A stretch of DNA of 64,000 nucleotides from contig DAORGN010000002.1 of the NCBI GenBank assembly GCA_035340095.1, forward strand, positions 1,160 through 65,159, in the 5' to 3' direction. Shown here one piece after another: positions 9,962 to 20,038 of this stretch. A model generated the notes under the pieces. It had not been told where the DNA came from and made no database searches. It saw nothing but the letters and a program-made list of their open reading frames with translations. A program made the translations under genes and the position numbers. The DNA comes from Pseudomonadota bacterium (lineage in GTDB: Bacteria; Myxococcota_A; Polyangia; Palsa-1104; JAEUJZ01). How positions within the stretch are numbered: the stretch's first letter is position 1; each line of letters starts with the position of its first letter.

Positions 9962-12463
9962 TTAGTTCCCTCGCGGCTTGATCATCTGGAAGTAGCGCTT
10001 GACGTAGAAGCGATAGCCCGGCGGGACGCGCTGTTTCGACATCACTTCTTCGGACACCGCCGTGTAGTCGCCGTAGACCTTGCGGTACGACGCTGTCGCG
10101 AAGCCTTTTTCTGCTGCGCCCGAGATCGTCTGCGAGCGGCTGGGTCCAGCGCCTTCTTTGCCATAGACCCGCGTCAGCTTGCGCTTGCTTTCAATCTGCG
10201 TCACATCACCGAGGAAGTTCGGATCGTGCTGTGTCCCTGGCCGGTCACCCTCTTTGCCTTGCCCCGGTCCGCCTTGGCCGTTTTGATTGCCCTGACCGCC
10301 TTGCCCTTGTCCGGGTCCGCCCGTCCCTGGTGACGCTTGCCCTGGCATCAGCACGATCGTCGTCTGTCCGTCTTGGCCACTTCCACCGAGCACCAACGTC
10401 TGGCCATCGCCGTCGCCGTTTGCCCGTTTTTTGAAATCCTGCATGTCTTTTTGGCCCTGGCCTTGACCCTGGCCTTGACCGCTTTTGCCAAGCCGCCGCA
10501 GCACCTGCTTGATCTGGTCGAGCGTGACGATGTTCTGCTTCTGCCCGGCTTTCTGTTTGGCCAGCTTGCGGACCTCGTCTTGGTAACGAGAAATCTCGCG
10601 CGACAGCTCTTCCATCGCCTGACGCTGATCCGGCGTCATTTTTTCCAGCGACTGCCGCATCCGTTCTGCCGCTTGCTGCAGATCGCGCTGGAGCTCCCGC
10701 ATCTGCTTTTGTGCTTCCTGTTTTTCGCGCAGCTGTTTTTCAACCTGCGAGAGCTGCTGCTGCTTTTGCGCCAGATCCTTTTGCGCGGCTTTGTCCTGCG
10801 GATTTTTCTTTAGCTGTTCTTGCAGACGGCGAATGTCCTCTTCGAGCTGCTTTTTTTGCTCTTTGAGCTTGCGGATTTCGTCCTCGAACTTTTGCTGCTC
10901 GCGCTCCATTTCCGACAGAAGCTTGCGTGCTTCATTTTGGTATTCGGGACGCTGATTGCCTTCCAGTCGCTGAAGCTGTCGTTCGCCCGGACCGTCGGCG
11001 TTTAGCTTTTGCTCGAGCTGTTCAAGCTGGCGCTGCGTTTTTTTCAGCCGTCGCTCGGTCTCTTCGTCCTGCGGATTTTCCGCCAGCTTCTTTTTGAGCC
11101 GTCGCTCTTCTTCGCGCAGCTCCTCACGGTTTTTTTCCAGCTCGTTTCGCTGCTGCTGCTTTTGCGCAAGCTCTTGCTTCTGCTTTTCCTGTTCTTGCCG
11201 AAGCTGCTCGGCGAGCTTCTGTTCCGCTTGTTTTAGCTCGTCGAGCTTGCGCCGCGCTTCGCTGTCGTTTGGGTTCTTTTCGATCTGCTGCTCAAGCTTG
11301 CGTTTTTCGTCGCGCAGCTCGTTTAGTTTTTGGCTGATTTCCTCGGACTTGTTTTTGGCCTGCCACTCGTCTTTTTGGCTCGCCCCGTCTTGCTTGTTCG
11401 TCGGTGTGTTTTCGTCGGGCCGGCTCGACATCGCTTTGGCGGCTCGCTCGAACGCTTCGGCCATCTGCTGTTTGTCCGCCGCTGCCGCTCTCGCCAGCGC
11501 TTTGTCCGCCAGCTCTTTTAGCTCCGCTTTCGCTTTGTCGAGATCGTCTTTGACCAGCGCTTGGCCAAGCTCCTGCGTCAGTTTCGATTCGCGCAGCTCA
11601 CTGCCGGCGCGGTGCAGTTGTTTTTCCATTTCAGCCAGCGTCGCTTCGGTGCCTTGGCGGACGCGCTGTTCGATTTCGCTGAGCCGTTCGAACGCTTGCT
11701 GCCGGGTCAGTTCACCCCGCTCGACTTGCTGGAGCAGATCGAGCATTTCGCGCAGAAGCTGTGCCGTTTCGTGATCGCCGCGCTGCTCGGCCTCGGCCAG
11801 CTTTTGCAAAAGCTCCTCACGCTCGGGCCCCAGAAGTTCAGGATCGATGTGCAACGTGTCCGCCATCGCTGCACTGGGTGTCGATTTGGCTTTTTCCGTC
11901 GGCAGTTTCGGACGCTCAAAACGCACAAACAGCAGCAGTCCATTGAGCGCGACAAGCACACCCAGCAGCGGCAGAAATGGCGGTTTTTTCCACGGTGCAG
12001 CGACGGAAGGCTGGACCTTTTGGGCGACCTGCGCGGCATCATGGACCGCCAGTTCCGCGAGCCCTTTGGCAAAGTCGGTCGGCGCAAGCGGTGTATGTCC
12101 CGCCGCAAACTGAATGGCCGACGACAGACGATCGTGCAGCGCGTGGCTTTTGTCGATGATCCCCGCCACCCACAGCGGATCGATTCGCCGCAGCGACAGA
12201 CCCACTGCCGTCAGCAGCACACCAACTGGACAGAGCAGCGCAAGTCGCACCAGCCAAAAACGGCTGAGCAGTTCCAGCCGAAACAAGAGCAGCGCGATCA
12301 GCATGACCGTCGCCGCTGCAATCAGTCCATGGACCACGCCGCGCGCCGCCGCTTGCAGCCGGAGCCGCCACCGCACCTTTGCCACCTTGGCCATGACTTG
12401 GGCCAGATCGTCTGCTGCAAAGCGAAATGCGGGCGACTCGTCGCGAGGCAACTGGTTTCCCAT
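9962..12463 (-). CDS. DUF4175-like membrane protein with long Gln/Glu/Lys/Gly-rich low-complexity coiled-coil region
   Basis: 833 aa. It has 2-3 predicted TM helices in the first 180 aa. A roughly 500 aa E/K/Q/R-rich coiled-coil region follows, then GQGQGQ/GQGNQNGQ Gly-Gln tracts. The conserved-looking tail is VYGDYTAVSEEV...YFQMIKP. This architecture matches my memory of TIGR02302/DUF4175. Confidence 0.55.
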   Translation of the reverse strand: MGNQLPRDESPAFRFAADDLAQVMAKVAKVRWRLRLQAAARGVVHGLIAAATVMLIALLLFRLELLSRFWLVRLALLCPVGVLLTAVGLSLRRIDPLWVAGIIDKSHALHDRLSSAIQFAAGHTPLAPTDFAKGLAELAVHDAAQVAQKVQPSVAAPWKKPPFLPLLGVLVALNGLLLFVRFERPKLPTEKAKSTPSAAMADTLHIDPELLGPEREELLQKLAEAEQRGDHETAQLLREMLDLLQQVERGELTRQQAFERLSEIEQRVRQGTEATLAEMEKQLHRAGSELRESKLTQELGQALVKDDLDKAKAELKELADKALARAAAADKQQMAEAFERAAKAMSSRPDENTPTNKQDGASQKDEWQAKNKSEEISQKLNELRDEKRKLEQQIEKNPNDSEARRKLDELKQAEQKLAEQLRQEQEKQKQELAQKQQQRNELEKNREELREEERRLKKKLAENPQDEETERRLKKTQRQLEQLEQKLNADGPGERQLQRLEGNQRPEYQNEARKLLSEMEREQQKFEDEIRKLKEQKKQLEEDIRRLQEQLKKNPQDKAAQKDLAQKQQQLSQVEKQLREKQEAQKQMRELQRDLQQAAERMRQSLEKMTPDQRQAMEELSREISRYQDEVRKLAKQKAGQKQNIVTLDQIKQVLRRLGKSGQGQGQGQGQKDMQDFKKRANGDGDGQTLVLGGSGQDGQTTIVLMPGQASPGTGGPGQGQGGQGNQNGQGGPGQGKEGDRPGTQHDPNFLGDVTQIESKRKLTRVYGKEGAGPSRSQTISGAAEKGFATASYRKVYGDYTAVSEEVMSKQRVPPGYRFYVKRYFQMIKPRGN

Positions 12464-12511: not shown

Positions 12512-13093
12512 CTACCGCCGCAGCCTGGATTGCGCCGTTTCAAGCGCTGCGGGCGTATCCACATCGACCAGTACTTCGGGATCGTCGACCGGAACGCGCA
12601 GCGGCGGATGTGTATCGCGCAGCGCTCGCAAAGAAGTCGACGACGGCAGCGCCAGCACATCGGCAAACTGTTCCGACGGTAGCCAAACGGGATGTCCGCC
12701 GCGATCAGCAAACGTCGGCACCAGCCAGCGTCGTCGATCTGCGGCCAGCAGTGTTTTGATCGTCGCAGTCTGCACGAGCGGCACGTCGACGGGCCACAAG
12801 AGCACGCCTTCGACGGGAGCCAGCGCTCGCAGTCCGCAGCTTATCGACGACAACATGCCTTCTTCGGGGGCCGGATTCCAGACCAGATCAACCGGCGACG
12901 CGGATTTCTTAATCCAGCGCGCAATCTCGTCGCCGTGTGGTTTCGCCAACACCACTTTGGGCGTGCGGATTCCCAGCTCGTCGAGCACCGACAAAATTCG
13001 ATCGATCACCACCGAGTCACCGAGCGGACAGAGCGCTTTGGGTGTGCCCATTCGACGGGATGCACCTGCCGATAGGATCAGCGCGTCGATCAT
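12512..13093 (-). CDS. MobA-like NTP-transferase domain protein (molybdenum cofactor cytidylyltransferase MocA-like)
   Basis: The N-terminus MIDALILSAGASRRMGTPKAL is the MobA/MocA nucleotidyltransferase signature. It overlaps the upstream xdhC-like gene by 4 nt (ATGA). Confidence 0.65.
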   Translation of the reverse strand: MIDALILSAGASRRMGTPKALCPLGDSVVIDRILSVLDELGIRTPKVVLAKPHGDEIARWIKKSASPVDLVWNPAPEEGMLSSISCGLRALAPVEGVLLWPVDVPLVQTATIKTLLAADRRRWLVPTFADRGGHPVWLPSEQFADVLALPSSTSLRALRDTHPPLRVPVDDPEVLVDVDTPAALETAQSRLRR

Positions 13094-13971
13094 GCCAGCT
13101 TGGATGCCTCGGCCAGCAGTCGTGGCGCTGCGGTGCGTGCGGTTTCGCTGTGCGGCTGTGCGGCGGGTTTCGCTGCGTGGTTTCGACGGGCACTTCGCAC
13201 CGCGGTAAGCTCGGCGGCAATCGCCAGCGCAATTTCAGCCGGGGTTTCGGCGCCGATCGGCAGACCAATCGGTGCATGGATTTGGGCAATCTCCGCTTCG
13301 GGAAAACCCTTGTGAAGAAGTCGCTTTTGAAACGTCGTCACTTTGCGCTGCGAACCAATCATCCCAAGATACGCGAGCGGTTTGCCCAGAAGCTGTTCGA
13401 GGATGGCCTGATCGGTCGCATGCTCGCGCGTCACCACCACCACATACGTCCGCTTGTCGAGCGGGATGTCTTTCCAGTCGCGTACATCGAAGCTGTCGAT
13501 GATCTGGGTATCAGGAAAGCGCTCTGGGTTGCCAAGCTCGGGCAAATCTTCGACGACAATCGGGACAAAATCGAGCGGCCTCAAAAGCGGAACCAGCGCT
13601 TTGGCGACGTGACCTCCACCGCAGACGATCACCAGTTCATCGGGAAACATGGGCTCCAGCAGGATCTCCATTTCGCCACCACAGCACATCGCCAGCTCGT
13701 GTGTCAGGTGATAACGGACGCGCTCGCACTGGGCTTTTTGGCCGAGCGCAAGAAGCTCCGCCGCGCGAAGCAGCACCTGCCGTTCGACGCGCCCACCGCC
13801 GATCGTGCCGACTTGGTCGATGTGACCTGCGACTTTGCGAATCAGCATGCGCGTGGCGTGTTTGCGCGGTGTACTTCCAGCCGTCCTGACGACGGTGCAA
13901 AGCACCATGCTTTCACGGGCTCTGCTCGACGCAAGCAGTGCCTCAAAGACCTCAACCTCGCGGCTCACCAA
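13090..13971 (-). CDS. XdhC/CoxI-family molybdenum hydroxylase maturation factor
   Basis: The XdhC_CoxI N-domain (VLCTVVRTAGSTPR) and the XdhC Rossmann domain (LVIVCGGGHVAKAL) are both present. Confidence 0.75.
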   Translation of the reverse strand: MVSREVEVFEALLASSRARESMVLCTVVRTAGSTPRKHATRMLIRKVAGHIDQVGTIGGGRVERQVLLRAAELLALGQKAQCERVRYHLTHELAMCCGGEMEILLEPMFPDELVIVCGGGHVAKALVPLLRPLDFVPIVVEDLPELGNPERFPDTQIIDSFDVRDWKDIPLDKRTYVVVVTREHATDQAILEQLLGKPLAYLGMIGSQRKVTTFQKRLLHKGFPEAEIAQIHAPIGLPIGAETPAEIALAIAAELTAVRSARRNHAAKPAAQPHSETARTAAPRLLAEASKLA

Positions 13972-14035: not shown

Positions 14036-15448
14036 TTAGCTGCTGCGTGGTCCGAGCGCTTCTTTGCGCATCATCGCATCGACGAGGAAAAACAGCGCAA
14101 AGTAGGCATCTTCGATGGTCGAGCGGCTGGATTCGGCGCTGTGGCCGGCCTGTCGAAAGCGCAGATAACGATCCGCAGGCAGTCCCAGCACCAGTGCACG
14201 CCAGGCCGGTCCTTCATCCGGTTCGCGCGCGGTATCGCTCACTTGCAGCGAAAAAAAGATGCCAACGGTCCGTCGGACAGCCTGCACGTACTGCGTCGCG
14301 TGGATCAGCCGCTCGACTTCTTGCACTTGCGCGCGCTGCGGACCGGGCGCAAGCAGCATGCTGAGGCCTTGATCGCGGCCCGCGGCTTCCATGCGCGGCG
14401 GCTGCGGCTGTAGCGGCGGTTTGCTCGGCTGCGCCAGCCGCGATCCCGGCATCGTCTTGTCGAGCGCCGCGGCACCATGCGGGCGGGGCGGGGCGGCTTG
14501 CGGCGGCGTATCCACGGCAATGGGACGCGGCGGACGGCTTGCGCGCGGGCGGATGATTTCTTCGACCGCGGGGAGCTGTTGACCGTCGGCGCGAACGGCT
14601 TGCACCACTTCGCTGGACTGATCGGGATTGGGCAGCGGCGGTGCCGACAGACCACTCATCGGCAGAATCTCTTGCGAGCGTCCGGCCTGTTCCCGCAGCA
14701 GTGCCGATTCGTCGATGCGCAGTGGCTGATCGAGCGTGTAGCGCTGGACCAGGCTGCGCAGTGCGGCTTGGGCTTCGTGGGCCGCCAGCATTCGACGCGC
14801 CGTCACCATGTCATTGCCAAACGACAGATCGCTCGTCGGCATCGAACCGGTTTGACCCAGCTCGGGCCGTTTGCGCAGCGCACTGGCTAGCGCTTCGGTG
14901 GCGAGCATCCGGAACGAATCAAACACCCCTTGGCCCGTCGCTGCAATCATTGGAACTGACTGCGACTGCCGGATGCCGAACGCCGGTTCCAGATCCGACA
15001 GCGCCACCGCGTCCGCGAGATCGCGCTTGTTCCATGCGACGACGAGCGGCACATCTTGAAGCCGCATCCCCAGATCGAGCAGGCAGTTGCGCAGCTCCTC
15101 GAGCGCGGCGGCACATTCGTTTTCGCGGCCTCTGCGGCTGTCCCAGACAAACAGAATTCCGTCACAACCCGCGAGCAGCGCCCGTCTGGTCGATTCGTTT
15201 TGTACGCTGCCCGAACCGGCAAAGACCTGCGCGTGTACCGGGGCTCCCAAAAGCGGTGGTGGCGGCGGATAAAAGTCGAAAAACAGGGTCCGGTCGGCAC
15301 CTGTGTTCACCGAAACAATTTGGCCGCGTACCTCGGGGCGCAGCAGCTTGTGAAGCTGTGTCAGCGCCGTGGTTTTTCCAGCTCCTGCTGGCCCGTAATA
15401 CACGAGCTTGAGGAGCACTTCGCGAGCCTGCGAATAAAGCTGCGCCAC
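14036..15448 (-). CDS. MglA-family Ras-like GTPase with ~280 aa C-terminal extension
   Basis: The N-terminal 190 aa align block-for-block with Myxococcus MglA. KLVYYGPAGAGKTT matches KIVYYGPGLCGKTT, and DRTLFFDF, GILFVWDS, NKRDL and GVFDS have counterparts. A Pro-rich linker and a C-terminal globular region of about 100 aa follow. Confidence 0.8.
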   Translation of the reverse strand: MAQLYSQAREVLLKLVYYGPAGAGKTTALTQLHKLLRPEVRGQIVSVNTGADRTLFFDFYPPPPPLLGAPVHAQVFAGSGSVQNESTRRALLAGCDGILFVWDSRRGRENECAAALEELRNCLLDLGMRLQDVPLVVAWNKRDLADAVALSDLEPAFGIRQSQSVPMIAATGQGVFDSFRMLATEALASALRKRPELGQTGSMPTSDLSFGNDMVTARRMLAAHEAQAALRSLVQRYTLDQPLRIDESALLREQAGRSQEILPMSGLSAPPLPNPDQSSEVVQAVRADGQQLPAVEEIIRPRASRPPRPIAVDTPPQAAPPRPHGAAALDKTMPGSRLAQPSKPPLQPQPPRMEAAGRDQGLSMLLAPGPQRAQVQEVERLIHATQYVQAVRRTVGIFFSLQVSDTAREPDEGPAWRALVLGLPADRYLRFRQAGHSAESSRSTIEDAYFALFFLVDAMMRKEALGPRSS

Positions 15449-15558: not shown

Positions 15559-16173
15559 CTAGGGCAGGTAGATGCGGGTGAGCGCCTGACCGCCCGCGTA
15601 GTGGCAGAGGTTGCAATCGACGCGGACTGTGGCGCCGGTGGCCGGGTCCTGACCGACTTTCTGGATCATGGTCTGGACTCGTTTTGCGGTGCTACAGTCG
15701 GGGCCGGTCGTCTCACAGACGCGGGCAATCATCGGCGCGGTAAACTTCGTCGCGGTATAGAAGTTACCGACGGAGTTGGTCGTTAGACGTCCTTTCGGCT
15801 GGACCTGACCGTACTTGTAGGCGCCTTGCGGATCGTCTTGTCCGTAGAGGATCTCGACCACCATGTTTGGCAAGCCCTCGCCGGAATTACAGCCCGAGGT
15901 CTTGTTTGCAAACAGCGTTCCCGAGACAGTCCACGGTGAGTTTTTTGCCTGTCCACCTGTGCTATGGCATGCGCCGCACACCCGACCGGGCAGCATCGTG
16001 GCAGTTGCCATTTTCATGGCATCGGTAGGGTCTTCCCCCTGACAACTGGCCTGCGCTTCGGCTGGAACTGTCAGTCCGTCGGTATCTCCGCATGCACTTG
16101 TCCCAAGCAGAGCCAGGCCCAGGCCCAGAGCCGACAGCCAACCAAGCGGCCTTCTCCCACGATGCGAACTCAT
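15559..16173 (-). CDS. lipoprotein with two CXXCH haem-binding motifs (putative c-type cytochrome)
   Basis: Start taken at MSSHRG..., which has a GGAG ribosome-binding site 6 nt upstream. The signal peptide carries lipobox LGTSAC. CGACH and CNLCH motifs are present. It is paralogous to the adjacent upstream gene. Confidence 0.6.
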   Translation of the reverse strand: MSSHRGRRPLGWLSALGLGLALLGTSACGDTDGLTVPAEAQASCQGEDPTDAMKMATATMLPGRVCGACHSTGGQAKNSPWTVSGTLFANKTSGCNSGEGLPNMVVEILYGQDDPQGAYKYGQVQPKGRLTTNSVGNFYTATKFTAPMIARVCETTGPDCSTAKRVQTMIQKVGQDPATGATVRVDCNLCHYAGGQALTRIYLP

Positions 16174-16195
16174 ATTGACTACTCCTTTTCTGTCA

Positions 16196-16705
16196 TCATT
16201 GGATGTAAATGCGGTCCGCCGCCAACCCACTGGCGAAATGGCAACTCGCGCAGCCGGTGGTGAGGTCAACTGCTCCGGTCATCTTGAGCAACATCGCGCC
16301 CTTCGAGACTCGAGCGGTTGCGTTTTTGAAGGCGGCGTTCGTCGGGAAGTGGAAATTTCCGACGGAATTCGTCATGGTGCTGGCGATGACGTTGCCCGCG
16401 GTGTCAAGGATGTCGACTTTGACGTCGGCAACTCCACCCGTGTTGCAGGTCTTGCTGTTCTTGGCTCCGTACACCGTACCACCCGTGCCGAGGATCTTGT
16501 CGGCGGCTTGCTGACCGGCTGCGTGGCAAGTCATGCAGTTGCGGCCCGGTAGCATTGCGTCCGACGCCTTCAGCATCTCGGCGGTTGGCTCTTCGCAGCC
16601 CGCTTTGGCTTGCGGTGCCGCATTGAGGTCCGCGGTATCGCCACAACCAACACCAAACAGGGGCATCGCAAACAGCAGGGCACAAGCAATGGTTCGTAGG
16701 TTCAT
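16196..16705 (-). CDS. lipoprotein with two CXXCH haem-binding motifs (paralogue)
   Basis: Start at MNLRT with a GGAG ribosome-binding site. Lipobox FGVGC. CMTCH and CASCH motifs are present, and an NSVGNF block is shared with the downstream paralogue. Confidence 0.6.
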   Translation of the reverse strand: MNLRTIACALLFAMPLFGVGCGDTADLNAAPQAKAGCEEPTAEMLKASDAMLPGRNCMTCHAAGQQAADKILGTGGTVYGAKNSKTCNTGGVADVKVDILDTAGNVIASTMTNSVGNFHFPTNAAFKNATARVSKGAMLLKMTGAVDLTTGCASCHFASGLAADRIYIQ

Positions 16706-16973
16706 CGTCACATCTCCTTTTCTCAGCAGTGCGAGCGCGTGCATCCTACGCTTTGTGCCCCCACGCCAATCTTATCTTCAAAGCCTAGGTGGCGAATAGG
16801 GGGCCTTGCGTTTGTGCGGCGGCGCTCCTTCGGTGCGACATCGCAAAACGGAGTGGTTCTGCGATTCGACCAGTGGTGCGCTTGGTTTCTGCCTCTGCGA
16901 GAGAAGGCCTGTTTTCAGGCGCCGCTTGTCCCGCACTTTGGGGTTTGGCACCTGCCTTGCTGATTGCAGCGGC

Positions 16974-18248
16974 ATGACCAACGACCAAACATCGACCCCT
17001 TCCTCTTCTTCTTCACCGGGCACCGCGTCCCACCGCTCGATTGGCATTGATGCCATCGCGTTTGCAGTGCCGCGGGCCTACGTTGAGCTGGCCGATCTGG
17101 CGGCTGCCCGAGGCGTTCCTCCGACCAAGTACATTCAAGGCTTGGGCGTCGTTCAGATGGCTGTGGCCCATCCGGACGAAGATCCCGTCACGCTCGCCAC
17201 CGAAGCGGCGCGGCGCTGTCTGATGGCGGCGGGGCGCTCTCCAGCGGAAATCGGCCTTTGCATCGTCGGTACCGAAACCGCGGTCGATCACTCCAAGCCG
17301 GTGTCGTCCTATCTGCACGGACTCCTTGGTTTGCCGTCGGCGTGCCGTGTGTTCGAAACCAAGCATGCTTGCTTTGGTGGCACTGCCGGTCTGCTCAATG
17401 CGGTCGACTGGCTGGCGGCGGGCTCTGCACGGGGCCGCTGTGCGCTGATCGTCTGCACCGACATTGCGCGGTATTCGGTTGGCACTGCGGGCGAGCCGAC
17501 CCAAGGCGCCGGCGCGGTCGCGATGCTGATCAGCGAAAATCCGCGACTTCTTGAGCTGGAACCGGGGATCACCGGCTGCTTTTCACAAAACGTCCACGAC
17601 TTTTGGCGACCGCTCTATCGAAAGGATGCGCTGGTCGACGGCCAGTTTTCGGTGCAGTGCTACCTCGACGCGCTCGCTGGAGCCTATGCCGAATGGCAGC
17701 GCCTGAGTGAAAGCAGCGAGCCGCTCGTGCGCACCTGCTACCACGTTCCTTACGGCAAAATGGCGCGCAAGGCCCATCAGCGCCGCTGCCAGCTCGACGG
17801 CATGACCGATGAAGCCGCCGACAAGAGCTTTGCCGTTGAAGTCGAGCCCTCGCTGCGGGTTCCTTCACAGGTCGGCAACATCTACACTGGCTCGCTTTAT
17901 CTTGCGCTCCTTTCGCTCCTCTACCACCAAGCGGCGGAGCTTTCGGGCAAGCGGATCGGACTATTTAGCTACGGCTCGGGCTGCGCCGCGGAGTTTTTCG
18001 CTGGCCGGGTGATGCCGACCGCTGCGGCCCAGATCGCGCGGGCTGGTGTCGATACAACGCTCGCCAATCGGCATCGGCTGGACATTCCGGTCTACGAGGA
18101 GCTGCGCAAAAACGACATTCATGTCGATCAGCGTCCATCCGAAATGCCGTCAGCCGCGGAAACCGGTGCCGCGCTCGCCATGGTCGATCGATCGCCGCGA
18201 TTTAACGGCATCGACAACCAAGAGCGCCGCATCTACACCGTCGCCTAA
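16974..18248 (+). CDS. mvaS: hydroxymethylglutaryl-CoA synthase
   Basis: The active-site block ETKHACFGGTAGL and overall HMGS architecture are present. The start is chosen at the ATG at 16974 (MTNDQ...). The ORF-track start at 16806 adds an implausible Cys-rich leader. Confidence 0.8.
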   Translation: MTNDQTSTPSSSSSPGTASHRSIGIDAIAFAVPRAYVELADLAAARGVPPTKYIQGLGVVQMAVAHPDEDPVTLATEAARRCLMAAGRSPAEIGLCIVGTETAVDHSKPVSSYLHGLLGLPSACRVFETKHACFGGTAGLLNAVDWLAAGSARGRCALIVCTDIARYSVGTAGEPTQGAGAVAMLISENPRLLELEPGITGCFSQNVHDFWRPLYRKDALVDGQFSVQCYLDALAGAYAEWQRLSESSEPLVRTCYHVPYGKMARKAHQRRCQLDGMTDEAADKSFAVEVEPSLRVPSQVGNIYTGSLYLALLSLLYHQAAELSGKRIGLFSYGSGCAAEFFAGRVMPTAAAQIARAGVDTTLANRHRLDIPVYEELRKNDIHVDQRPSEMPSAAETGAALAMVDRSPRFNGIDNQERRIYTVA

Positions 18249-18466: not shown

Positions 18467-20038
18467 TTAGTATCCCTTGGTATCTAAGGGAAAACTTGGT
18501 CCTTTGGGTGGGGCAGGTTTGGCTCGGTGGCGATGCCGGCGTGTCTTCGTTGCCTTGCTCGTTTCCTCAGTTCCCGTTTCGGGCTCGGCTGAGGGGGCTT
18601 TTTTCGCGACTGCGTCTGCTGGTTCCGCTGATGCGACGCTTGCGGTCACGGGCGCTGGTTCGCTGCCTGGTCGCGCTTCCGGTACAAACAGTACTTTTTG
18701 CGCGGCTTGTTCTCTTTGGGCGGTTTGTTGACTGGCGAAGCTTGGTGTGGGCGGCGGTCGCTTTCGGAGCCAGACGCCCCACAGCACGGTCAGAATCGCA
18801 ACCACAAGCGATGCCACAGCGAGCGTTCGCGCGCGGCGTGCCGCAGTCTGGTGTGCACCGTTGGTTAGCACCGCCGTTGCCATTCGCAAAGGCCGCGTCG
18901 CTCCTGAACTGCTGATGACCGTCGGAGGGGCTCCTGAATCGCCAGGCGCGAGCGTAGGCGGACCTGACCCAGTAGAAACCTCGCCGGGACTGGCTGCTGG
19001 CTGGGGCAAGGCGGGCCGAATGGTCTGACCACTTGTCGACGGAAGGAACTGGATCAGGATCTGGAGCGCTACCGCACAATCGACGGGCCGGTTTTCCAGG
19101 GACTGCGACAGAAACTGATCGAGCGCGGGCTGCAAGTCTGGTGGAAACGTAGTGCCTGGCAGAAGCTCGGTCAGACGCAGCGGCGGCGAAACCATGCGCG
19201 CCATCACCATCGACACTTCCGATCGACTCGTTTCCCCCCACGGCAGTTTTTTGGTCAGCATTTCCGTCAAGATGACCCCGACGGCAAACACATCTGATTG
19301 GGGGCTGGCTTCGTCGCCTTGCAGCGTTTCCGGCGCCATGTAGTGCGGCGTTCCGAGCGCTGTTTGCGTCGATGTCACCCGTGTCTTGCGACCGAGTACG
19401 CGCGCGATGCCGAAGTCGAGCACCTTGACGACCTCTTCCGCCCCAACCGAAAGCGGCTTGCGCGCGACGAAGATGTTGTCCGGTTTGACGTCGCGGTGGA
19501 TGATCTGCCGAGTGTGCGCCGCCGCGAGTGCACGCACCGCCGGGATGAGCAGCTCCAGCGCCCGCAGCAGCGGCATCGGGGCTTCCCGCTGAATCAGTCG
19601 GTCGAGCGTTTCCCCCCCGAGCAGCTCCATTGCGATGTAGCTTTGGCCGTCGCTGGTGTGGCCGCTGTCGAAGATGGTCACCGCGTTTGGGTGGTCCAGG
19701 CTGCTCGCAATTTGGGCTTCCCGCTCGAAACGTTTGCGCATTTCGGCGCTCTGTCGATGCTCGCTGCGGAGCAGTTTCAGGGCGACGCGACGACCGATGC
19801 CGGCTTGGGTGGCGACGTAGACCTCGCTCATGTGGCCGTAGCCAAGCGGCTCACCCAAGACGTACTTGCCGCCGAACACGCGCTGATCGCCAAGTAGTTG
19901 TGCGCCATCTTTGGCACAAAAATTGGCGTCCCCGTCGGGTGGTAGATAAACAGAGTGGCAACTCGGGCAGTATTTGCCCAGCACGGTGGGTGGCGGATCG
20001 AAGTTTTGCGCCACGTTGTGTGCTGCAGTTTCCGTCAT
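18467..20038 (-). CDS. Ser/Thr protein kinase with N-terminal zinc-ribbon and C-terminal TM/low-complexity tail
   Basis: Hanks motifs are HRDVKPDNIF, DFGIA and GTPHYMAPE. The N-terminus has CPSCH...C. One TM helix is followed by a Pro/Ala-rich tail. The stop lies 5 nt from the tRNA 3' end on the opposite strand. Confidence 0.85.
   Translation of the reverse strand: MTETAAHNVAQNFDPPPTVLGKYCPSCHSVYLPPDGDANFCAKDGAQLLGDQRVFGGKYVLGEPLGYGHMSEVYVATQAGIGRRVALKLLRSEHRQSAEMRKRFEREAQIASSLDHPNAVTIFDSGHTSDGQSYIAMELLGGETLDRLIQREAPMPLLRALELLIPAVRALAAAHTRQIIHRDVKPDNIFVARKPLSVGAEEVVKVLDFGIARVLGRKTRVTSTQTALGTPHYMAPETLQGDEASPQSDVFAVGVILTEMLTKKLPWGETSRSEVSMVMARMVSPPLRLTELLPGTTFPPDLQPALDQFLSQSLENRPVDCAVALQILIQFLPSTSGQTIRPALPQPAASPGEVSTGSGPPTLAPGDSGAPPTVISSSGATRPLRMATAVLTNGAHQTAARRARTLAVASLVVAILTVLWGVWLRKRPPPTPSFASQQTAQREQAAQKVLFVPEARPGSEPAPVTASVASAEPADAVAKKAPSAEPETGTEETSKATKTRRHRHRAKPAPPKGPSFPLDTKGY

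Follow-up and report, generated by a model that had tools for sequence, protein, structure and literature searches.

The stretch of DNA studied here (hereafter the window) comprises 64,000 nucleotides (nt) of contig DAORGN010000002.1 (assembly GCA_035340095.1, positions 1,160 to 65,159), which GTDB places in the class Polyangia of the Myxococcota_A, and the gene of interest in it encodes a putative small GTPase related to MglA that continues into a long C-terminal extension. The gene lies at 14036-15448 on the minus strand, among genes of the same strand, and forms a complete open reading frame (ORF) of 470 amino acids (aa) with a GTG start and a TAA stop, as supported by the ORF call, the sequence itself, an even codon composition and full-length homologues. 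The predicted N-terminus, MAQLYSQAREV, agrees with the MAQLYSQ starts of the homologues. An original prediction, made from the letters of the sequence, had described the product as an MglA-family paralogue with an extension of about 280 aa and had itself raised the possibility that this extension is a frameshift artefact. Our analysis confirms that the extension is genuine coding sequence. The G+C fractions at codon positions 1, 2 and 3 are 0.74, 0.50 and 0.70 over the ORF, and the dip at position 2 is present in every block of 40 codons. About 50 homologue clusters of 430-550 aa with the same layout are found in NCBI, ENA, JGI and Logan assemblies; many of them align over 96-100% of the query at identities of 43-99%, and in the remaining clusters a variable linker splits the best local alignment, the C-terminal domain (hereafter the C-domain) being detected nonetheless. 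A frameshift or a chimeric join between an mglA-like gene and a downstream ORF could in principle create a false long ORF, and the C-domain coding region does contain a run of seven T residues (around 14262-14268), a kind of site prone to insertions and deletions. This run, however, codes for IFFS, which matches IFFS or IFYA in the aligned homologues; the architecture recurs in the roughly 50 clusters of independent assemblies and in 24 GTDB species genomes, the codon-position signal is even along the entire ORF, and the C-domain model folds with a predicted local distance difference test score (pLDDT) above 90. Because the independent homologues, the uniform codon composition, the conserved residues at the T run and the confident fold all exclude a frameshift or fusion, the probability of such an artefact is practically nil, and the gene is real and intact.

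The N-terminal part of the protein, residues 1-195 (14864..15448, minus strand), is an MglA-type Ras-like G domain with alternating beta strands and alpha helices over residues 11-193. Residues 7-188 match Myxococcus xanthus MglA without large gaps (PDB 6hjh, 6h17 and 5ymx; E=7e-32) and Thermus thermophilus MglA (PDB 3t12; E=1.5e-26), and the next relatives of solved structure are Arf-like proteins with E values of about 1e-3 (best 7e-4). When the AlphaFold model is compared with the PDB by Foldseek, MglA structures take all of the first 14 places, at target-normalised TM-scores (TMt) of 0.83-0.89, and Ras and Arf folds rank about five orders of magnitude behind. Pfam and NCBIfam scans of the full protein return nothing beyond sub-threshold or marginal generic P-loop and Arf matches. 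These results support the assignment to the MglA family that had been predicted; the identity of the window G domain to M. xanthus MglA, however, is only 36%, against 53-59% for other MglA-like matches and for those members of the family described below that retain the TVPGQ motif.

Group 1 MglA proteins are defined by an intrinsic arginine finger and a highly conserved TVPGQ motif (Wuichet & Sogaard-Andersen 2015, PMC4316618), and an mglB (roadblock) gene usually accompanies them at a distance of no more than four genes, 59 of the 449 members being orphans (PMC4316618). The closest Ras-superfamily relatives of the window protein are MglA proteins, its arginine finger stands beside the G2 threonine (R53-T54, invariant in 27 aligned homologues), and its G1 (GxxxxGK[ST]) and G4 ([NT]KxD) motifs take the forms GPAGAGKT and NKRD, though with Ala in place of Gly21. 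At G3, where Group 1 carries TVPGQ with the catalytic Gln, the window protein has AGSGS, and no mglB lies within four genes. Since it departs from Group 1 in TVPGQ and lacks the coupling to MglB, we file the window protein, on its sequence, as a derived offshoot of the MglA family and not as MglA itself.

A residue-by-residue comparison of the motifs, all on the minus strand, indicates how far the catalytic side of the G domain has been rewritten. The P-loop GPAGAGKT occupies residues 19-26 (15371..15394), facing GPGLCGKT in MglA, and alignment places Ala21 at the position of Ras G12 and MglA G21 (correspondence from PMC3000849). The G2/switch I core DRTLFFD (residues 52-58, 15275..15295) contains the arginine finger R53, T54 and D58, all invariant within the clade in the 27-sequence alignment, and the G4 motif NKRD (residues 140-143, 15020..15031) is invariant as well. 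The G3 motif is degenerate: in the residue alignment and the clade table, AGSGS occupies residues 77-81 (15206..15220, codons gcc ggt tcg ggc agc), and in the HMMER alignment A77-G-S79-G-S81 of the window protein faces T78-V-P80-G-Q82 of MglA. The changes relative to MglA are thus Gly21 to Ala, Thr78 to Ala, Pro80 to Ser and Gln82 to Ser. Throughout the clade of the window protein (P0001-P0050) the P-loop consensus is GPA[GSA]AGK[TS], and the place of Gln82 is taken by S (25), G (12), A (6), T (3), E, R or D, with Q retained in two clusters only; in some members even the Ser/Thr of the P-loop is gone (GKAS in P0043, GKGS in P0050). Invariant or nearly so in the 27-sequence alignment are K25, R41-G-Q43, T49, G50, D52, R53, T54, F56, F57, D58 and N140-K-R-D143. 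In the mutagenesis of MglA, where Ras G12, G13, A59 and Q61 correspond to G21, L22, P80 and Q82 of the M. xanthus protein, T78A, T78D and P80A abolish function and T78S alone is tolerated, and G21V in T. thermophilus MglA lowers kcat 7-fold (PMC3000849). As aligned, the native sequence of the window protein differs from MglA at four sites at which one change is enough to disable or lock the latter. The claim that the first 190 residues match MglA in every G-motif block is therefore wrong for G3 and the P-loop, including Gly21, and the G domain is not canonical: R53, T54, D58, GKT and NKRD are kept, but substitutions have replaced the catalytic Gln, Thr78, Pro80 and the Gly equivalent to G12. 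With these four substitutions the question shifts from where the GTPase-activating protein (GAP) is to whether the protein hydrolyses GTP at all.

A further peculiarity of the G domain is a poly-proline turn between the switches, FDFYPPPPP, which follows directly after beta2 where MglA has FDFLPLSLG; the turn covers residues 58-65 (15254-15277, minus strand), and P61 is invariant and P63 and P64 nearly so. The transition of MglA between its GDP and GTP states involves a register shift of beta2, and a rigid poly-proline turn at this place might alter or block such a movement.

These features bear on one alternative, namely that the protein is an ordinary MglA orthologue, working as a normal polarity switch with an unlinked MglB and carrying the tail as a lineage-specific decoration. 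MglA is indeed the best match in both sequence and fold, one source names homologue P0007 'Gliding motility protein MglA', and orphan MglA genes are known, for example those of Bdellovibrio bacteriovorus MglA and SofG (PMC4316618). However, an identity of 36% where other MglA-like proteins and the TVPGQ members of the same family reach more than half, the missing TVPGQ hallmark of Group 1 and the altered P-loop with Ala for Gly21 all speak against it, as does the finding that T78A or P80A alone is sufficient to abolish the function of MglA (PMC3000849). Together with the conservation of the C-domain, described next, these points make an ordinary MglA very improbable in our judgement.

The anatomy of the tail was derived from the 27-sequence alignment (A1) and a full-length AlphaFold model. 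Directly after the G domain lies a conserved helix that the original prediction had missed, at residues ~210-236 (14741..14821, minus strand), with the consensus D.VT.RR.LA..EAQ.AL; it is specific to the clade, is modelled as helical over residues 214-236 with a pLDDT of about 55-64, and has R218 and A222 invariant and D213, V215, T216, R219 and L221 nearly so. It is followed by a Pro-rich disordered linker (residues ~237-358, 14375..14740, minus strand) with pLDDT below 50, which varies among homologues in both length and sequence and in which residues 241-355 (115 residues) include 23 Pro and 11 Gln. Many clade members carry islands of conservation within this linker, P[MI]H[VA][LV]P[IVM]R.[DE]V and RV..EP (A1 columns ~345-420), and a weaker form, EVVQAVRADGQ, is seen at residues ~275-300 of the window protein (nt ~14549-14626); such islands could be short linear binding motifs. 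The protein ends in a helical bundle, the C-domain (residues ~359-467, 14048..14374, minus strand), whose signature includes VRR...F, a REPDEGPAWR loop, RYLRFRQ and ED..FALFFL.DA..RKE. Its helices reach pLDDT values of 86-98 over the full-length and single-domain models (86-95 for the domain in the full-length one), and when it is modelled alone (31 sequences) it folds into five helices with a mean pLDDT of 85.9 and a predicted TM-score (pTM) of 0.80. The predicted layout of a Pro/Gln-rich linker and a globular end of about 100 aa is borne out in this form: the linker is Pro-rich and variable, and the globular end is conserved and measures about 110 aa. Mean pairwise identity is 68% in the G domain and 70% in the C-domain, against 56% in the helix and 26% in the linker, so that the tail domain is as constrained as the GTPase. 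Conservation at this level argues that the tail is not decorative, which weighs further against an ordinary MglA with an ornamental extension. Family-wide, the nearly invariant residues of the C-domain are E379, R427, R430, F450, F454 and D457, with D447 invariant; the clade of the window protein additionally keeps VRR391-393, the REPDEGPAWR loop and Q386.

No known relative of the C-domain has come to light. Scans of 11 members against Pfam give nothing at E<=10, the C-domain profile has no match at E<=10 among PDB sequences, and the search of the C-domain model against the PDB with Foldseek, which had been proposed as a way to place the tail, yields no significant match, the best being PsbQ at E=0.48. 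The other Foldseek matches are generic four-helix bundles, including HEPN (TM 0.4-0.5), HPt, FAT-like and 14-3-3 fragments, and to judge from the model they are what any up-down helical bundle would yield. A roadblock/LC7 fold, which is alpha/beta (Robl_LC7), can be rejected for the tail, which is all-helical and has no match to Robl_LC7 or any other Pfam family at E<=10, in line with the prediction that it is not an obvious roadblock fold. We also considered HEPN domains, which are four-helix up-down bundles whose last helix opens with an Rx4-6H motif. The structural resemblance is weak (2hsb, TM 0.50, E=1.6; 1jog, 1wty and 1wwp, E=2.9-4.0), the Rx4-6H motif is absent from the last helix of the C-domain, where [ST]x[ED]D[AG]xFALFF stands instead, and the HEPN assignment is rejected. 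As a separate observation, one metagenomic protein of 392 aa (P0174) is the sole protein other than a GTPase to contain a C-domain-like region (E=8e-5), located mid-protein, and its N-terminal part contains LRVPLKH, an Rx4H motif reminiscent of HEPN, with no Pfam match; the HEPN lead from this protein was dropped for want of Pfam support. Stand-alone C-domain proteins were rejected too, as the short matches are gene fragments with remnants of the linker or the G domain.

We define the family as proteins in which an N-terminal MglA-like G domain is joined by a variable and disordered linker to a C-domain that matches the A2/A3 profile; the window protein matches the C-domain hidden Markov model with 142.8 bits (E=1.9e-44). 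The C-domain is carried by 121 of the 178 collected sequences. An exhaustive profile search of 1.84 billion cluster representatives recovers it in only 60 clusters (E<=1e-3). In all of these but P0174 the C-domain makes up the C-terminal part of the match, and an MglA-like G domain precedes it in every complete protein inspected, the exceptions being P0174 and P0146, a probable chimera. None of the MglA-like matches of 300-340 aa carries the C-domain, and a word-indexed search with a broad C-domain profile finds 3 fragments only. One fragment from a 'Pseudomonadota' metagenome-assembled genome (MAG) at NCBI (P0178) matches the window at 100% identity along the stretch of C-domain that it spans (86% of the query). 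An uncultured myxobacterium of the Polyangia type is therefore the most likely source of the window. A scan of GTDB with one genome per species (185,579 species) finds the C-domain in 24 genomes, all of them uncultured MAGs labelled Polyangia, Myxococcales, Deltaproteobacteria or Pseudomonadota, of which the last label is probably wrong. So far the family is restricted to the Myxococcota, in uncultured myxobacteria of the Polyangia type; examples of MAGs with the gene are GCA_046351595.1 and GCA_964460115.1.

The distant members of the family (P0051-P0063, P0130-P0166) retain the canonical motifs GPGLGGKT and TVPGQ, and their identity to MglA is 53-56%. In a neighbour-joining tree of the G domains, without support values, all bearers of the C-domain fall into one group, with the TVPGQ forms basal, P0138 (TVPGP), P0124 (TTPGD) and P0050 (TTTGE) intermediate and the window protein on the longest branch; by its sequence, it is in the most derived clade of the family. 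Because the C-domain also sits behind canonical TVPGQ G domains, it should predate the catalytic loss, and the order in the tree likewise indicates that the C-domain was acquired first and that erosion of the catalytic site came after. The simplest history would be that the C-domain was acquired once and that the catalytic site then eroded step by step. Our literature search found no description of an MglA-like GTPase with such a C-terminal domain or with a degenerate G3; the family of G domain, tether and C-domain is undescribed, and the known part of it is the MglA scaffold.

The surroundings of the gene bear on the question of a partner, in particular MglB. A Pfam scan of 10 flanking genes (about 5 per side) detects no roadblock (Robl_LC7) domain, in agreement with the original observation that no mglB-like gene is adjacent. 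No roadblock gene is found in the neighbourhoods of 9 homologues, no second MglA-like gene is present in the 64-kb window, and a tblastn search for MglB across the window gives no match, which is weak evidence as the query was an approximate one. A conserved operon partner of any kind is likewise rejected, none being shared across the 9 neighbourhoods examined. The synteny of the window is confined to relatives of at least 77% identity (L003, L010-L015), and the neighbourhoods of more distant homologues differ from the window and between clades.

In the window itself, the gene directly upstream of the GTPase gene encodes a small CxxCH protein (15559-16269, minus strand, called as a 236-aa ORF, no Pfam match) and is preceded by a second one (16196-16744, minus strand), which has weak Pfam matches to Paired_CXXCH_1, MtrC-like and carboxypeptidase-regulatory-like domains. 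The two are tandem paralogues, each with a signal or lipoprotein-like N-terminus and two CxxCH motifs, and from these motifs they may be dihaem lipoproteins; since the two ORF calls overlap by 74 nt, the 236-aa ORF probably begins at the internal MSSHRGRR. Beyond them lies a gene for HMG-CoA synthase of the mevalonate pathway (16806-18248, plus strand), in keeping with a myxobacterial source of the window. Immediately downstream of the GTPase gene, after a gap of 64 nt, are an XdhC/CoxI-family gene and a MobA-like nucleotidyltransferase gene that overlap stop to start (12512-13971, minus strand). Such a pair is associated with maturation of the molybdenum cofactor. Its linkage to the GTPase gene is confined to close relatives and so is probably non-functional. 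Further downstream is a gene for an 833-aa protein with N-terminal transmembrane helices, a long E/K/Q-rich coiled coil and a Gly/Gln-rich tail (9962-12463, minus strand, no Pfam match), which is again kept in close relatives only.

The sole recurrent neighbour of the family is a divergent lipoprotein of about 100 aa, present in eight non-redundant loci from both clades, including a TVPGQ-type locus (L001:8119-8580, L005:9422-9979, L008:7322-7828, L018:1397-1834, L019:2079-2498, L025:1014-1460 and L034:6577-6999, listed on the minus strand). It has an LxGC lipobox, two conserved Cys and a C-terminal DPNGK...F.R, matches nothing in Pfam and is not a roadblock protein; no homologue of it occurs in the window or in the closest relatives of the window. 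In 15 loci, and in two arrangements, a gene for a Ser/Thr protein kinase is found within 3 kb of the GTPase gene: in the window it is at 18467-20038 (minus strand), and in L007 and L022-L028 it is immediately downstream of the homologue. This proximity is possibly due to chance, because there are only two synteny groups and the phylum is rich in kinases. Among the TVPGQ-type members, a partly conserved neighbourhood is shared by the JGI contig of P0057 (sample 3300047160) and L034, with an FHA-sigma54 activator near the homologue on both contigs and a PATAN (PatA_N) gene on one; one TVPGQ-type member has a PATAN gene as its direct neighbour. Earlier work on genome context has connected PATAN proteins with systems of the MglB type.

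Taken as a whole, the motifs and the tail suggest to us, with about even confidence, that the protein is a GAP-independent and probably hydrolysis-impaired derivative of MglA tethered to a docking module. The G domain would still bind guanine nucleotide, as GKT, T54, D58 and NKRD are intact. It would hydrolyse GTP poorly and would no longer use an MglB-type GAP, behaving much like Rnd and RhoH, and the loss of MglB-type GAP use would explain the missing linked mglB. The C-terminal bundle would act as a constitutive docking module, serving to localise the protein, to form oligomers or to bind a partner, and could hold the switch I 'head' near its target by means of a flexible leash, with output set by abundance, placement or modification and not by a cycle of GAP and guanine nucleotide exchange factor. 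Of the roles that had been offered for the tail (regulatory, GAP-like or localisation), the GAP-like one finds no support, the C-domain being unlike known GAPs, and localisation or docking appears to fit better.

Several observations weigh against this interpretation. The arginine finger R53 is invariant, though it would be dispensable in a dead enzyme. Two residues past the lost Gln stands a clade-specific Q83-N84, a candidate for a relocated catalytic residue. Q386 and the REPDEGPAWR loop, invariant in the clade of the window protein and missing in the TVPGQ relatives, could supply a catalytic residue in cis. The tree behind the proposed order of events is a neighbour-joining tree with no support values, and the docking role is one that we infer solely by exclusion and analogy.

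The same observations could be read in favour of a regulator built into the protein, in which the C-terminal bundle folds onto the switch regions, supplies or positions catalytic residues in cis and so replaces MglB; within the window clade, a residue of the tail would then compensate for the lost cis-Gln. The C-domain is found almost exclusively behind MglA-like G domains, R53 is retained, and the loss of Gln82 coincides with clade-invariant Q386, R408, E412 and REPDEGPAWR loop in the tail, at which the TVPGQ relatives have Asp (position 386) and a variable loop. In addition, the three-helix bundle of RomX binds MglA-GTP, so that small bundles are capable of it (bioRxiv 10.1101/2024.02.20.581209). 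However, the C-domain resembles neither roadblock/longin nor any other GAP nor RomX, the best Foldseek match having the insignificant E value given above, and it is older than the catalytic losses. The docking of the tail onto the switch regions, which the original prediction proposed to look for with AlphaFold, is not confidently predicted: the full-length model has a pTM of 0.40, a disordered tether of about 120 aa and no confident packing between the domains, as judged without the predicted aligned error or contacts. The co-occurrence of C-domain and G domain, moreover, represents a single evolutionary event, and the loss of the P-loop Ser/Thr in P0043 and P0050 points to relaxed catalytic constraint rather than to a rescued mechanism. 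We therefore consider a built-in regulator or GAP unlikely, and its more specific form, in which the tethered bundle acts in cis on a remodelled switch II and supplies a catalytic residue (Q386 and the REPDEGPAWR loop being the candidates), more doubtful still. If it were true, the protein would be a self-contained small-GTPase timer without MglB, with a GAP fold unrelated to roadblock/longin or eukaryotic GAPs.

Comparison with known systems helps to define what a hydrolysis-impaired, docked MglA derivative would share with them. With MglA of M. xanthus (MXAN_1925) and T. thermophilus (5ymx, 6hjh and 3t12) the window protein has in common the Ras-like fold, R53-T54, DRTLFFDF with D58, NKRD and GK[TS]; it differs in its length of 470 aa against about 195 aa and in its conserved C-terminal helical domain, as well as in AGSGS for TVPGQ, Ala21, the poly-proline interswitch, the identity of 36% and the absence of a linked mglB. 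The TVPGQ-type members (P0054, P0130 and P0141) share the three-part architecture, a homologous C-domain (hmmsearch E 1e-30 to 1e-40) and the phylum, but they keep GPGLGGKT and TVPGQ and are without the helix at 210-236, the REPDEGPAWR loop and Q386; P0054 is named 'gliding motility protein [Myxococcales bacterium]' by its source. The nearest characterised concept, likened here by description, is SofG of M. xanthus, which reportedly carries extensions beyond the G domain. SofG is an MglA paralogue of the orphan type, which MglB does not stimulate and which has no linked GAP, and it acts through a landmark protein, the bactofilin BacP (PMC4316618, PMC4085708). In contrast to the window protein, which is without the catalytic Gln, SofG keeps its arginine finger and needs GTPase activity (PMC4316618, PMC4085708).

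Outside the MglA family, the closest functional parallel is with eukaryotic Rnd1-3 and RhoH, which are GTPase-deficient, and insensitive to GAPs, because the G12-equivalent glycine is missing or G3/switch II is altered (PMC13236570). The window protein is substituted at both of these places, and the sequence hallmark of the GTPase-deficient class, a residue other than Gly at G12 and/or a lost Q61 equivalent, is found in it as Ala21 and Ser81; by this likeness it is predicted to be GAP-insensitive and constitutively GTP-bound. The two have no kinship beyond the Ras superfamily, and the resemblance would be a functional one read from motifs. In its layout the protein recalls RomR, which joins a signalling (REC) domain through a disordered Pro-rich linker to a small helical module at the C-terminus, and its small helical bundle recalls RomX, a partner of MglA-GTP (bioRxiv 10.1101/2024.02.20.581209). 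However, no similarity in sequence or fold to RomR or RomX is detected, the C-domain has five helices against three in RomX, and the 50 Foldseek matches listed for the C-domain model do not include the RomX structure 8ZNA.

Among bacteria MglA serves as the model of a Ras-like polarity switch, and what is known of its biology hinges on the MglB GAP and on a catalytic pair of Gln and Arg. The family described here represents an MglA branch with an obligate fusion to a new helical module, in which the clade of the window protein appears to have then lost the residues for hydrolysis but to have retained the surfaces for nucleotide binding and switch I, and its C-domain is a small, confidently folding orphan domain with no annotated relative. 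If our interpretation of a hydrolysis-impaired, docked derivative is right, these proteins would be a bacterial counterpart of the GTPase-deficient Rnd and RhoH, and the series from TVPGQ through TTPGD and TTTGE to AGSGS would offer a natural progression for studying how a switch changes into an adaptor. The cellular roles of such an adaptor in these uncultured myxobacteria may lie in motility, polarity or envelope processes.

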